A stretch of DNA of 32,000 nucleotides from Candidatus Saccharimonadota bacterium. Lineage in GTDB: Bacteria; Patescibacteriota; Gracilibacteria; Absconditabacterales; Absconditicoccaceae. The stretch spans positions 900,001-932,000 of the forward strand of contig OZ246420.1 of NCBI GenBank assembly GCA_965231145.1, read 5' to 3'. This document shows positions 1,609-28,593 of this stretch, piece by piece. Below the pieces are notes generated by a model, which saw only the letters and a list, made by a program, of their open reading frames with translations, did no database searches and was not told the DNA's origin. The position numbers and the translations under genes are program-made. Positions within the stretch are counted from its first letter, which is position 1, and each line of letters starts with the position of its first letter.

Positions 1609-1782
1609 TAGGTTTTCTATTTATGTGAATCTGTATTGTACCACTCTTCTCCTCAAAATCAATACAATATTCCTCAAAACTACAACAACCATAATCTGGC
1701 CTTGAAACTTATTTCTTTTTCTCTTATAGTACGTACGTTCTTTTGTTTTACATAAAAAGCAAGAGATTATCGATATAAACTT

Positions 1783-2004
1783 TTCTCACTCCTGCCGGAG
1801 GGGCGTTACTTTTTAGCATATCCCTAAAAAGCAACCAAAAAGGTCTAGTCGGATATAGCACTACGAGCCTGTGAGTTATTCAAACATTGAATACGACGTC
1901 TTTCGCTGTCGCGCGCATCACAGCGACTCCAGCTCAATACTACCATTCTTATTATATTTCACGATCGCAAAGAGAAGACGTGGGGTATATCCGACGAATA
2001 AGAA
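1783..2004 (+). repeat. copy A of a ~220-nt dispersed element (candidate structured RNA / cis-leader); inverted partner at 25727-25945
   Basis: Reverse complement of 25727-25945 aligns with about 11 mismatches over ~185 nt outside a ~28-nt variable core. Hairpins are conserved (1809-1831, 1903-1926). Long-range pairing links 1848-1857 to 1986-1995. Confidence 0.8.
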
Positions 2005-2030: not shown

Positions 2031-3221
2031 ATGCATATAAGCCAACCCTTAGCAGCCCTCCTCCGCCCACAAAAACTCGATGAGCTAGTCGGACAAAAAC
2101 AGATCATCGAGCAAATGAGATCATATATTACTTCAGGGAAGATCCCATCAATGGTATTTCGATGACCTCCGGGCTCAGGAAAGACAACACTTGCAATAGT
2201 GCTCAGTCATGAACTCGAAGCAGACTTTGTGCATCTGTCTTGAGTCAGCAGCAAAAAAAGTGATCTCAGTGAGATCATCCATCAGGCACAGATGAACAAA
2301 TGATACAACAAAAGAACTATCGTTTTCTTAGACGAAATTCATCGTCGAAATAAAGCGCAGCAAGATGCGCTACTTCCTTATGTAGAAGACTGAACTATTA
2401 TATTAATAGGAGCAACGACAGAAAATCCTAGCTTTACTATTAACAATGCATTGCTCTCGCGCACAAAGGTAATAGTTTTCGATAAACATACCGAAGACGA
2501 TATCGTAAAATTCATCGAAAGTCACATAAGTGACATACAAAGACTCTATCCATGAATTGAGATTCCTATCGAAACCGTAGAGCTTATCTCAAGGCTCGCG
2601 AACGGTGATCTGAGAAATGCGTTAAATCTTACAGAATGATGACTCATGATCCAATGAACGTGAATACTTGATCCGCAAACTATTCTTATCGCCTATGGAA
2701 AACCAGTCTACTACGATCGCAATGGCGAAGAACATTATAATATCATTTCCGCTGTACACAAATCGCTTCGCGATAGCGACGCAGATGCAGCATGTTACCG
2801 AGTGCAAAGGATGCTGCAGTGATGAGAAGATCCACTCTACATCTGCCGTCGCCTCGTCCGCTTTGCGAGTGAAGATATCGGGCCCGCAGACAACAACGCC
2901 CTCCTTCTTGCCAACACCGTCTACGACGTCTGTGCAAAGCTTTGAATGCCTGAGTGCGACAATGCATTAATGCAATTAACACTCTATCTCGCGAAAGCAA
3001 AAAAGAATAACATCTGTTATGTTATCTCACAGGAAACGAAAAAAGATGTCATGCAGTTCGGCAATCTCCCTGTGCCTTTGCACATCCGTAATGCGCCATC
3101 AAAATTAATGAAAAACTTAGGCTACGGAAAATGATACAAGTATGCTCATGATTATGAAGATGCTAAAGTCGATCAGGAACATTTTCCTGATGAACTAAGA
3201 GGCAGAAAATATGCGGAATAA
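2031..3221 (+). CDS. rarA: recombination factor / replication-associated AAA+ ATPase RarA (MgsA)
   Basis: [20 protein letters not shown]..., Walker A [TGA]PPGSGKTT (TGA 2163-2165), [24 protein letters not shown][TGA][14 protein letters not shown] (TGA 2391-2393), and C-terminal ...[17 protein letters not shown][TGA]YKYAHDY. Thirteen in-frame TGA; stop TAA 3219-3221. Confidence 0.93.
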
Positions 3222-4403: not shown

Positions 4404-4512
4404 AACTCACAAACTTAAAACTAAAATCTTAAAACTAACTTTCAGTTTTTATGTAATAGACACCTAATTACAACGGACATTATTTTTACTATAAAAAAAT
4501 AATCCTTTCGGA

Positions 4513-5100
4513 TTATCTTTTACTAATGATAGGTTGTGGTATGACCTGTGCTGCATAGTGAAGCGTCACATAATATCTCTTGAGAGTTGGATCGACAGAG
4601 ACACCGAGTCCCATGGTTTGGAAGTATGGATGCACAAGTGCTTTATAGTGCATACCCATGTATGGTTTTTCTTTCATAAAAAAAGTCCATGTAGTTTTGA
4701 GCGCAGCGATAAGATCATCAGTACAGTCATCTTTTTTACATGAGAAATATCCGTATCCAAGACTCTCACTAAATGTTGCACGATTGATATTTTTAAATCT
4801 TACTCCATGACCTGCAAACCATTTTTCAATGCCACCATAATTATAGTAACCATCGTTGGCTGAACGCTTATGGTCGATAGTTTGATTGACGAGCGCATTC
4901 TGACTCCACATTTGTGCGGTCTCAGAAAGTCTCGTATCTATCGTATACTCAGGAAGTTCGAGAGATGTTCTTAGTTCATTATTTCGATCGAGCCATACTT
5001 GCTCTACTTTTCACATATCTATATCTCATGCGGCTGCAAATACTGGCGCGCACATAACTACTACGGCAATAACATACTTTTTCCGCAATCACGTGGACAT
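4513..5100 (-). CDS. secreted CAP/SCP (YkwD-like) domain protein
   Basis: Signal-like N-terminus MST[G]LRKKYVIAVVVMCAPVFAAA, then ...WLDRNNELRTSLELPEYTIDTRLSETAQMWSQNAL...HYKALVHPYF... typical of CAP domains. Three TGA lie upstream of the track ORF. A hairpin AATAATCC-TTTC-GGATTATC sits at the stop. Confidence 0.75.
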
Positions 5101-12015: not shown

Positions 12016-12042
12016 AAAAGAAAGCGAATGCTTTCTTTTTTT
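12016..12042. terminator. bidirectional terminator shared by convergent genes
   Basis: AGAAAGC-GAAT-GCTTTCT, with an A-run upstream and a T-run downstream. Confidence 0.7.
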
Positions 12043-12985
12043 AATCACCTGCTCAGCCACCTCATGACATACCTCCTCCTCCGCTAAATGAACTTCCACC
12101 TCAACCAAAACTACCTCCACTACTCCATCCGCCTCAAAATCATGTTCAACGACTGACCACTATATTTCCAGCTATCACATTATAGAAAATAACTCATATC
12201 CACGATGCAAGCCACGGTCCTATCAGATACGCTCTCCATGGCAATAATATAAGAAACAACTGAAATACAAAGACCATGATAAGTGGCAATGATTTGTATA
12301 GCGTTTTATTTTTATTTTTTCAGATTATTACTCACTTAATTTTCTCCGCCGCCTTTCTTTTTTTCTGCATGATTCCCATCCATATATCATATCCGATAAC
12401 CACAATAAATCAGATAAGATTGATAATAATCAACTCTGGAGAGATGACATCCTCTGAAAAAGCAAGGGATTGTGCTTCATCAGAAGCTATTGCTTCTTCT
12501 ACTCTTTGATAAAACACTCTTACGGCTCATGCATAGTCTCATGCATTTACCAATGGGCGAATATCCTGCTCAATAATTTTACTTGCCAACACGTCGGGCA
12601 TCTGCCCTTCCAGTCCATATCAGACCATAATACGAATCTTCTTTTCATCTGTTGCGATCACCAGTAGCAATCAATCATTATTTTTCTTACTTCCAATACC
12701 ATTGTCATTGAATGCCTTCAGAGAAATATCAAAAAGTTCTTTCCCCTGACGATCCGGAATCAAAATAGCCACAAACTGGCGTCATGAGTTCTGATCATAC
12801 TGATATGCATGATCGTTGAACTGCTGCAGTGTCGTAGCGTCCAACACACCGGCAAAATCTGTTACATATTGATTAAGCTTCGGCAGATTCATCACATCAA
12901 GATTTTGCGTTTGGGCAAAAGTGACACTTCATAGACAGAGTGTCATCAATGCAATCATGTTTCCTACGATCTTTTTTATATTCAT
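12041..12985 (-). CDS. TPM-domain (YgcG-like) membrane protein with Gly-rich C-terminal tail
   Basis: Not in the ORF track (split by ~18 TGA). YVTDFAGVLDATTLQQFN...[G]RQFVAILIPD...NNDG[=TGA]LLLVIATDEKKIRIMV[G]YGLEGQMPDVLASKII..., two TM helices, and tail SR[G]T[G]F[G]GGWSSGGSFG[G]GGSSFSGGGGMS[G]GG[G]AGD. This is the usual partner of lemA. Confidence 0.85.
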
Positions 12986-18776: not shown

Positions 18777-18886
18777 ATTCAATGATTTTAGTCAACATTC
18801 TTTGAGAACAACTTTTATAGGCTTTTTTGATAAAAAAATAGTTCCGGAGAACTATCTTTAAAAATATGATTATGAAATATGTAGTG

Positions 18887-24841: not shown

Positions 24842-25690
24842 TTACGATAAAGAGAGTATCCGTGAGCTTATCATCATCATGATCCACGCCGCTAAGATCA
24901 TACCCGGGAAAAATGGAATCATGCGTTTACCTCATTCATGTGTGATAGGTATGACGACGAGTAGTAACAATGACGCTATGCATGCTACGATAACGTAATA
25001 TCGAAAATACTGTACTGTCATCATCCAAGAACCCATATCCATGAGACCACTACTTTGTACTACTTTCCAAAGCACAGCGCCAACAATAGGCGCGAGCATA
25101 ACATCTCACTGACCGATGCCTTCGGCATCCTGCTTCCATCTGAAGCGAACATAGAGTTTAGCGAGCAGATAAATGAAAACAAAACCTATAGTGAAGATGA
25201 CTACTCGCTGAGCAGCAGTAAGAAAACTAGTTCCATCATTACCATAGATCAACAGACCTGCTGCTCAGAGCAGCGCCATCCATCGAGCTACAGGATGAAG
25301 ATACATCGTTCGGATGTCATAGATCATCAGCAAATAGAGCGACCGATGCACAAAGAGCGACAAGATAAGCAAAGTAATATCTCCTCCACCATAGAGCGTT
25401 CGCCAATATGTTATTCCCAGAAACACCAACGCTGAACCAAGTTCAAGAAGCGGATACCAGTGTGAGACTGTCGCTTTACAATAGCGACACTTCCCTCTTG
25501 TCGAAAGCCACGAAAGCAATGGAAAAAGATCATATCGCGTCAGCGTATGCTTGCAATGCGGACACTGAGAACGTCAGACCAACACTGAACGAACTTTTTT
25601 TCGTGTTACTTCGGTTCCTAGTCTATGCAAAATAACTGATCAAAATGATCAGAAGAGCAAGCCTATGATAAATACAGCGATATATAACAT
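24842..25690 (-). CDS. pilD: prepilin peptidase (A24 family)
   Basis: MLYIAVFIIGLLF[G]SF[G]SVILHRL...CPHCKHTLTRYDLFPLLSWLSTRGKCRYCKATVSHWYPLLELG...LLMIYDIRTMYL...GIGQ[G]DVMLAPIVG... The track shows only an 84-aa piece. Stop TAA 24842-24844. Confidence 0.88.
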
Positions 25691-25726
25691 AATTGTATTT
25701 TCAGAAATGCTAAACATATGTTATAT

Positions 25727-25945
25727 TTCTTATTCGTCGGATATACCCCACGTCTCCTCTTTGCGGTCGTGAAGTTCTAGCAAGAGTGTTAGTATTGAGC
25801 TGGAGTCGCTGTGATGTGCGCGACAGCGAAATACTTCGTAGTCAATATATGAATAACTCACAGGCTCGTAGTGCTATATCCGACTAGACCTTTTTGGTTA
25901 CTTTTTGGGGATATGCCAAAAAGTGACGCCCCTCCGGCAGGAGAA
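25727..25945 (-). repeat. copy B of the ~220-nt dispersed element (inverted relative to copy A)
   Basis: See copy A. In element orientation it lies 36 nt upstream of the pilD ATG and directly downstream of the 62-aa ORF stop (25947). Confidence 0.8.
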
Positions 25946-25946
25946 A

Positions 25947-26135
25947 TTATTTTATAGCTCCCGTTATGGTAGAGCCGCTTTGAGTTCCAAAATTTTCCTG
26001 AAATACCTTGATAAATCCTTCTGCTATACGCTTCTTTTCAGTCTTTTCACCATAAATCATGCCACCGAGAAATGAGCCGAAAGCTACCAAAATACAGATA
26101 ATAATCCAAGAGATATGCGTCGATTTATGCTTCAT
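25947..26135 (-). CDS. hypothetical small single-pass membrane protein (62 aa)
   Basis: Uninterrupted ORF with TM helix ISWIIICILVAFGSFLGGMIY. TAA stop. Confidence 0.45.
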   Translation of the reverse strand: MKHKSTHISWIIICILVAFGSFLGGMIYGEKTEKKRIAEGFIKVFQENFGTQSGSTITGAIK

Positions 26136-28218: not shown

Positions 28219-28593
28219 ATGACTAATTTTGAAAAATTGGGAGTATGGCACAAATCCATAGACCTCTCTGCCAGTATGCATGAACTATGTGATACACAGC
28301 CTTCACTCAAAAGAAATTATGGACTAAAAGATCAAATTCAAAGAGCAAGCGTATCTATTCCTAGCAATATTGCTGAATGATCATGAAGACAGACGGATAA
28401 AGAATTTATAAGATTTCTCTATATCGCAAGAGGAAGTTGTTGTGAATTATTTACACAGATTACTATTCTTTTACGCATTAAATATATTGATATTTTCACA
28501 CATTCTTCGATCACTCATCAAATAACAGAAATACAGAAAATGATTAATGGGCTCATATCAGCTCTATCCAAACAACTAGCGACTAAAAACTAG
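28219..28593 (+). CDS. four-helix-bundle protein (23S rRNA intervening-sequence protein / Avd family)
   Basis: Absent from the ORF track. MTNFEKLGVWHKSIDLSASMHELC...LKDQIQRASVSIPSNIAE[TGA]S[TGA]RQTDKEFIRFLYIARGSCCELFTQI... shows the family signature (W....l....y, IpsNIAEG, F..iA.GS..El). Stop TAG 28591-28593. Confidence 0.85.

Follow-up and report, generated by a model that had tools for sequence, protein, structure and literature searches.

A candidate family of short, hairpin-rich interspersed repeats in mRNA leaders of an Absconditabacteria-type genome

Introduction

BOX elements of Streptococcus pneumoniae and ERIC/IRU elements of enterobacteria are short non-coding intergenic repeats that form stable stem-loops. 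They are co-transcribed and are present or absent at orthologous sites, and their spread is poorly understood. Correia elements, which are MITEs of Neisseria, and classical MITEs possess terminal inverted repeats (TIRs) and a defined TA target duplication. Here we describe an element of similar size that occurs twice in the window, the whole 32,000-nucleotide stretch analysed. On balance, we favour the interpretation that it represents a new species-specific family of short non-coding, non-autonomous, hairpin-rich interspersed repeats that are co-transcribed with their neighbours. It would be non-autonomous because it encodes nothing.

BOX and ERIC/IRU, together with Correia, are functionally the closest kind, but the element is a member of none of them. 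Like BOX and ERIC, it is short, intergenic and stem-rich, lies in transcribed spacers beside genes and is absent from the orthologous sites of relatives. However, BOX is assembled from modules (boxA-boxB-boxC) and ERIC consists of a single long, imperfect palindrome, whereas the element has a 5' hairpin region and a 128-nt domain closed by a 10-bp helix. No sequence relationship between the element and BOX or ERIC was found, and its host, which is of the Absconditabacteria type with a genome of ~1.1 Mb, is unlike the hosts of BOX and ERIC. With Correia elements and classical MITEs the element shares the size class, the lack of an ORF, insertion in a 5' UTR or between cistrons, co-transcription and possible effects on mRNA processing. 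Unlike them, it has no TIRs, and a target duplication is present at one copy at most. A literature search on repeats in Absconditabacteria returned nothing relevant.

The repeat pair and its ends

The initial annotation described an inverted repeat of ~220 nt, and this repeat is real: the two copies are 216 and 217 nt long, differ at 19 positions (91% identity) and have sharp ends. A repeat search revealed a single strong inverted repeat in the window, with arms at 1789-1950/25782-25943 (93%) and 1958-2004/25727-25773 (96%). We call the copies A and B (Table 1); they are inverted to each other and lie 23.7 kb apart. In blastn, they showed 91% identity over 217 nt (E=6e-85), and no third sequence resembling them was found within the window. 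A MAFFT alignment of the trimmed copies contained 19 differences in 217 columns, which were 18 substitutions and one 1-nt indel. Eight of these fall within a variable segment and 11 outside 1941-1968, so that the earlier count of about 11 mismatches outside a variable core was correct. This clustering (8 differences in a 25-column window) is beyond chance in a permutation scan (p=0.014). A 50-nt block, 1833-1882 (copy B 25850-25899), is identical in both copies. The GC content of the element is 45-47%, well above that of the adjoining AT-rich spacers, at ~9% divergence between the copies; a GC excess after such divergence hints at some constraint.

Table 1. Coordinates of the repeat, its stems, neighbouring genes and assembly breakpoints in the window
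Feature	Position	Strand	Remarks
Copy A	1789-2004	+	216 nt, rarA 5' UTR; covariance model (CM) 271 bits
Copy B	25727-25943	-	217 nt, between 62-codon ORF and pilD; CM 277 bits
5'-terminal stem-loop CTCC-TGCC-GGAG(GGG), then CGTTACTTTTT	1789-1803	+	Stem identical in both copies; copy B 25946-25929
Hairpin 1	1805-1835	+	Perfect 8-bp core 1809-1816/1824-1831, 7-nt loop; copy B 25927-25897
Long-range helix, 5' arm GTCGGATATA	1848-1857	+	Within identical block 1833-1882; copy B 25884-25875
Long-range helix, 3' arm TATATCCGAC	1986-1995	+	Closes 128-nt domain; copy B 25745-25736
Hairpin TCGCTGT-(10 nt)-ACAGCGA	1903-1926	+	7 bp, 1903-1909/1920-1926; copy B 25829-25806
Variable segment	1943-1965	+	8 of 19 differences, incl. 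1-nt indel; copy B 25789-25766
Promoter-like site TTGAAA-17-TATAGT	1702-1730	+	rarA; kept, with surroundings, in two sister species (three species in total)
rarA (replication-associated recombination protein A)	2031-3221	+	TGA read as Gly; downstream of copy A
pilD-like prepilin peptidase	24842-25717	-	Downstream of copy B
62-codon membrane-protein ORF	25947-26135	-	Stop codon 25947-25949; conserved in L009 (60 aa) and L010 (81 aa)
Contigs L001, L002 (Logan)	End at 1817		
Contig of L007 (Logan)	1919-25756		
Contig L011 (Logan)	Starts at 25914		
Contig L018 (Logan)	Starts at 1913		

Copy A loses its similarity to copy B sharply at 1788/1789 on one side and at 2004 on the other; for copy B, the edges are equally sharp at 25943 and 25727. 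The sequences flanking the two copies are unrelated. The left boundary of copy A is also set by the Logan contig end at 1817, and both boundaries of copy B are set by the contig ends at 25914 and 25756. By the breakpoint logic explained below, the ends of the element are fixed at 1788/1789, 25943 and 25727.

A coding element was rejected. There is no conserved ORF in the element, as in each reading frame the changes between the copies are all non-synonymous unless copy B interrupts the frame. Its concatenated six-frame translation was compared with 5.8 billion proteins; no predicted protein matched, nor did any spurious gene call over other copies. The earlier statement that the element belongs to no known RNA family was confirmed by Rfam and ARAGORN. 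Scanning the whole window against Rfam 15 at gathering thresholds gave no match, including to tRNA, tmRNA, RNase P, SRP, 6S, ribozymes and the IS605-orfB/HEARO omega-RNAs. At E<=10, both copies gave only eukaryotic snoRNA, miRNA and lncRNA noise far below threshold, and ARAGORN found neither a tRNA nor a tmRNA. Scans of viral contigs with different parts of the element, and blastn against phages and plasmids, gave no match either.

When genome and metagenome contigs were scanned with a 19/20-mer from the 50-nt invariant block, only chance matches of 20 nt appeared. The 20-mer GTCGGATATAGCACTACGAG occurs exactly in a Candidatus Cybelea MAG (L004:3294-3313) and in soil metagenome contigs (L005:3433-3452 and L006:14453-14472). 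These matches were taken as chance and not as homologues, since similarity stops at the 20-mer and no tRNA lies there. A tRNA-derived origin of the element was rejected, because ARAGORN and Rfam were negative and these three 20-mer sites are not tRNA genes.

Further copies deduced from assembly breakpoints

Logan k=31 assemblies of three runs represent the same organism and are 100% identical to the window. Analysis of the window at k=31 revealed that 31-mers common to A and B occur only inside 1833-1882/25850-25899, and with two copies alone contigs are expected to break at ~1862, 1853, 25879 and 25870. What is observed is different: contigs break exactly 30-31 nt inside the terminus at three of the four ends (Table 1). 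Breaks at this distance mean that the terminal 31-mer recurs elsewhere with another flank. An empty-site polymorphism was considered as the cause of the breaks and rejected, because in that case contigs would stop right at the element boundary. The left-terminal 31-mer of the A type is not that of the B type, so each needs an extra copy of its own. From this we infer that the genome holds at least four copies of the element, of which two have been read and the others are deduced from the breakpoints. Furthermore, the first 31-mer of L018 carries the B-type base at 1915 (A) together with the A-type base at 1943 (C). This points to a third variant of the element, although a strain SNP is possible.

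Empty orthologous sites in relatives

We fetched the syntenic loci of relatives via their MutL and RarA homologues. These relatives are the closest on record and share 74-90% protein identity. The pilD spacer lacks the element in L009, where it is AT-rich and 80 nt long (89% MutL identity), and in L010, where it is 43 nt long (74%). The rarA leader lacks the element in L017, where it is AT-rich and ~75 nt long (88% RarA identity), and in L015 and L016 (90% RarA identity), which have a different insert of ~112 nt instead. When the relatives' DNA was searched by nhmmer and with R1, a covariance model derived from copies A and B, no copy of the element was found (~142 kb in total in the model search, window included); over the fetched loci, only copies A and B and contig-end fragments matched. 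The comparison shows that copies A and B each entered, as a discrete insertion, a transcribed spacer that had been short and AT-rich.

The gene order over both junctions is kept in relatives, polyprenyl synthase-rarA-ydjM-CAP-dprA at one and mutL-pilD-small ORF-recJ-dksA-recG at the other. Since synteny is conserved across both junctions, copies A and B were inserted independently and do not bound a single larger unit. Thus, it can be said that the element is dispersed, as the initial annotation proposed, all the more as the breakpoints imply at least two further copies.

Sister species have unrelated small structured inserts in the same two spacers as copies A and B, and this suggests that both spacers tolerate or attract such elements. 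The ~112-nt insert in the rarA 5' UTR (L015:5380-5491, also L016:3101-3216), in the same spacer as copy A, is bounded by a 9-nt terminal inverted repeat, TGTGTAATA...TATTACACA, and looks like a classical MITE. In another sister species (L014:1-110, 89% MutL identity), four consecutive GC-rich hairpins unrelated to the element lie just upstream of pilD. They are possibly another repeat, at which that assembly breaks.

Genomic setting and transcription

Copy A is flanked by a divergent 101-codon gene (1303-1608, -) and rarA. It begins ~59 nt downstream of the conserved -10 box of rarA and ends 26 nt before the rarA ATG (2031). Because the promoter-like site upstream is conserved in sister species, copy A should lie within the rarA transcript. 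Copy B begins 3 nt past the stop codon of the 62-codon ORF. It ends 10 nt before the first pilD ATG and 36 nt before the ATG that aligns with the start in relatives; judged from the alignment, the pilD start homologous to theirs is probably the ATG at 25690. The next gene after pilD, downstream of copy B, is mutL. Both copies are therefore in the sense orientation to the downstream gene, 26-37 nt before its start codon and in transcribed spacers. As both are sense-oriented inside mRNA leaders, the element would be carried in the rarA and pilD(-mutL) messages.

It had been proposed that the element behaves like a cis-acting leader. The position just described agrees with this proposal, but a conserved cis-regulatory leader is contradicted by the empty sites in sister species. 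GC skew is negative in nearly all 2-kb windows, and the cumulative curve falls across the whole 32 kb. Since the skew has a single sign across the window, the copies would be opposite with respect to replication and alike with respect to transcription, a weak distinction at n=2.

Stems, folding and a possible functional RNA

The three helices named in the initial annotation, which are the core of hairpin 1, the 10-bp long-range helix and hairpin 1903-1926, are all present and intact in both copies. MFE and centroid folding both predict the 10-bp helix, for copy A as well as for copy B, and a 10-bp stem arises in 2% of shuffles. In hairpin 1903-1926, the sole difference between the copies (1915) is in the loop. 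Hairpin 1 extends to 12 bp with one A.C position (sense) or G.U position (antisense) per copy. These positions stem from two one-sided changes at the base of hairpin 1, read as A.C in sense and as G.U in antisense, and at n=2 they are uninformative. In its core, A1815:T1825 of copy A is replaced by G25917:C25907 in copy B. This double change, reported earlier as compensatory, is real, but the pair in copy B is 25917/25907 and not 25897/25907. In consensus scans, the 5' stem-loop with its U-tract is weakly terminator-like, and neither a sigma-70-like promoter nor a strong terminator was found inside the element. Copy A contains six perfect Watson-Crick stems of >=7 bp, compared with ~1.0 expected from shuffles. 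Three of the six (1877-1883/1887-1893, 1896-1902/1975-1981 and 1946-1953/1997-2004) are broken in copy B.

It had also been claimed that substitutions avoid the stems. This does not hold: with the structure fixed from one copy, five pairs are broken and 6.3 are expected (P=0.33), and the list of stems on which the claim was based was selective, half of the perfect stems of copy A being broken in copy B. The same procedure with two sequences gives P=0.18 for one or more compensatory pairs by chance alone, and RNAalifold reports a "compensatory" pair in 38% of trials with randomly mutated copies. The RNAalifold consensus places three differences in paired columns and 16 in unpaired columns (Fisher p=0.0015). 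However, when copies were mutated at random, paired columns received a mean of 4.6 of the 18 substitutions, and in 30% of trials the number was 3 or lower. Because random mutants likewise show few substitutions in the columns that RNAalifold pairs, this enrichment is circular. The single double change could be due to chance or to templated mutation within a palindrome. Two copies give no demonstration of selection on RNA structure, and the claim of structure-preserving evolution is, as far as these sequences tell, overstated.

Fold z-scores are -2.0 and -2.4 for the sense RNA, -2.4 and -2.6 for the antisense RNA, and -3.3 for ssDNA. As all of these fold about equally well in comparison with shuffles, folding does not identify the strand, nor RNA as opposed to DNA.

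These features bear on the strongest alternative, namely that the element is a functional structured RNA module, either a cis-acting leader or an RNA processed from the mRNA, that was newly recruited before genes for DNA transactions (rarA; pilD-mutL) and whose fold is under selection. Such a module would be expected to show the sense placement close to the start codon inside transcripts and the three preserved helices, one of them kept through an A:U to G:C double change, and these two features also count against our preferred reading. The 10-bp closing helix in the folds of both copies, the clustering of differences in one predicted loop segment and the high GC content relative to the surrounding spacers also agree with it. 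Riboswitches, leader RNAs and the ncRNAs of Rfam resemble the element in their 5' UTR position, multi-helix fold and GC enrichment in an AT-rich spacer. Unlike them, the element has no Rfam match even at E<=10 and is not conserved before orthologues, both orthologous sites being empty in relatives at 74-90% protein identity, and rarA and pilD share no obvious ligand or pathway. A functional fold is also not what one expects when the fair substitution test is not significant, when half of the perfect stems are lost in the second copy and when antisense RNA and ssDNA fold as well or better. Moreover, hairpin 1 can accommodate its one-sided changes in the antisense strand but not in the sense strand, and neither a promoter nor a strong terminator belongs to the element itself. 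We regard a functional module as possible but doubtful, with nothing to contradict it beyond the missing conservation and the missing statistical support.

Mobile-element anatomy

An interspersed repeat, which is the reading that we prefer, has to be compared with known mobile elements. Like a MITE, the element is short (216/217 nt), non-coding, multi-copy and dispersed, with two copies read and at least two more deduced. However, it fits a classical MITE poorly, because it has no TIRs and a duplication at most at copy A. The left end, CTCCTGCCGG..., and the reverse complement of the right end, TTCTTATTCG..., share nothing. The sole long inverted repeat (10 bp) is internal, at element positions 60-69 and 198-207. 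A 4-nt duplication of TCTC is possible at copy A (TCTC|A...AAGAA|TCTC); the flanks of copy B, AATTT|...|ATATA, show no duplication. At both places, the empty sites of relatives are strongly diverged. No transposase-like gene or parent IS was seen in the window and the adjoining ~12 kb (~44 kb of this genome), and in 174 kb of fetched loci no IS ends resembling the ends of the element were found.

Elements of the IS200/IS605 type also move without TIRs, and the element could be a miniature derivative of this type (PATE), its ssDNA being moved by a Y1 transposase through recognition of subterminal hairpins. PATEs are non-coding, have hairpin-bearing ends and produce no target duplication. Consistent with this, the element has no clear target duplication, a perfect hairpin starts 21 nt from its left end, and the best fold z-score is that of ssDNA. 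Unlike PATEs, it has no target motif common to the left flanks (TCTCA at copy A vs AATTT at copy B) and no hairpin near the right end corresponding to that on the left. In addition, the copies are in opposite orientations relative to replication if the one-signed GC skew of the window is followed, which with two copies is weak evidence, and no TnpA or TnpB gene is found in the window or the adjoining ~12 kb, as judged by the Pfam families of the products. An origin as a PATE is therefore unlikely.

It is quite unlikely, too, that the element belongs to a new class of structured RNA confined to Absconditabacteria, serving either as a transposable leader for common control of rarA and pilD-mutL or as a self-guided mini element with a target loop of ~25 nt. 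If the element were a mini mobile element supplying its own guide RNA, in the manner of bridge RNAs or seekRNAs, segment 1943-1965 would be the programmable loop that specifies the insertion site. The absence of TIRs, the significant clustering of differences in a ~25-nt segment between conserved helices and a third variant that appears to diverge at 1949, inside this segment, would be in line with such a guide. However, identity or complementarity of the variable segments to their own flanks does not exceed that in shuffled controls, no recombinase gene is adjacent and no IS110-type DEDD gene flanks either copy, and the term "hypervariable" refers to eight differences between two sequences. 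We consider a guide-RNA element very unlikely. The inverted orientation of copies 23.7 kb apart might suggest the termini of one 24-kb unit (a composite transposon, an island or an invertible segment) or an assembly artefact, but a composite transposon or invertible segment is ruled out by synteny across both junctions, whose gene order is the same in relatives without the element, and three independent Logan assemblies give the flanks and both ends at 100% identity, so that this is the least credible reading.

A possible course of spread and its consequences

If the element is a member of a family of interspersed repeats, it would depend for its spread on recombination, or on a transposase or recombinase whose gene lies elsewhere and which acts in trans. 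The numerous stems may be recognition or folding features of a DNA or RNA intermediate. Once in an mRNA, the 5' stem-loop with its U-tract and the 128-nt domain closed by the 10-bp helix could fold, and the folded element might modulate read-through, processing or stability, by analogy with ERIC, BOX and Correia repeats.

The recent arrival of a hairpin-rich repeat without TIRs or ORF in mRNA leaders suggests that such genomes still gain selfish or regulatory DNA. The element also marks a site of systematic assembly breaks for this organism. Should it turn out to be a functional RNA, it would join a very short list of non-coding RNAs described from code-25 bacteria; for now, it is a curiosity of modest weight at the level of one species.

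Other features of the window

Among named homologues, the best matches to MutL and RarA come from SR1/Absconditabacteria. The ORFs of the window make sense only when TGA is read as Gly, for example in the Walker A motif of RarA. In-frame TGA, as at 2160-2165, is abundant (13 in rarA and 16 in ORF 12041-12985), its reading as Gly is that of genetic code 25, and ORF calling by table 11 breaks up most genes of the window.

A divergent promoter region (1650-1735) separates the 101-codon gene from rarA. It contains a direct repeat, CCTCAAAAT...CCTCAAAA, in addition to TTGAAA-17-TATAGT, and is conserved in three species. From its sequence, it is a candidate operator plus promoter. The 101-codon ORF is Cys-rich and belongs to no Pfam family; since it is conserved in L015, it is probably a real small protein. 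Similar hairpins flanked by A/T (AAAAAATAATCCTTTCGGATTATCTTT type) occur at 4484-4520 and 18823-18859, between convergent or adjacent genes, and look like bidirectional intrinsic terminators. The gene at 28219-28593 (+) encodes a protein of the four-helix-bundle "23S rRNA intervening-sequence protein" family (PF05635 on the Logan gene call, L012).
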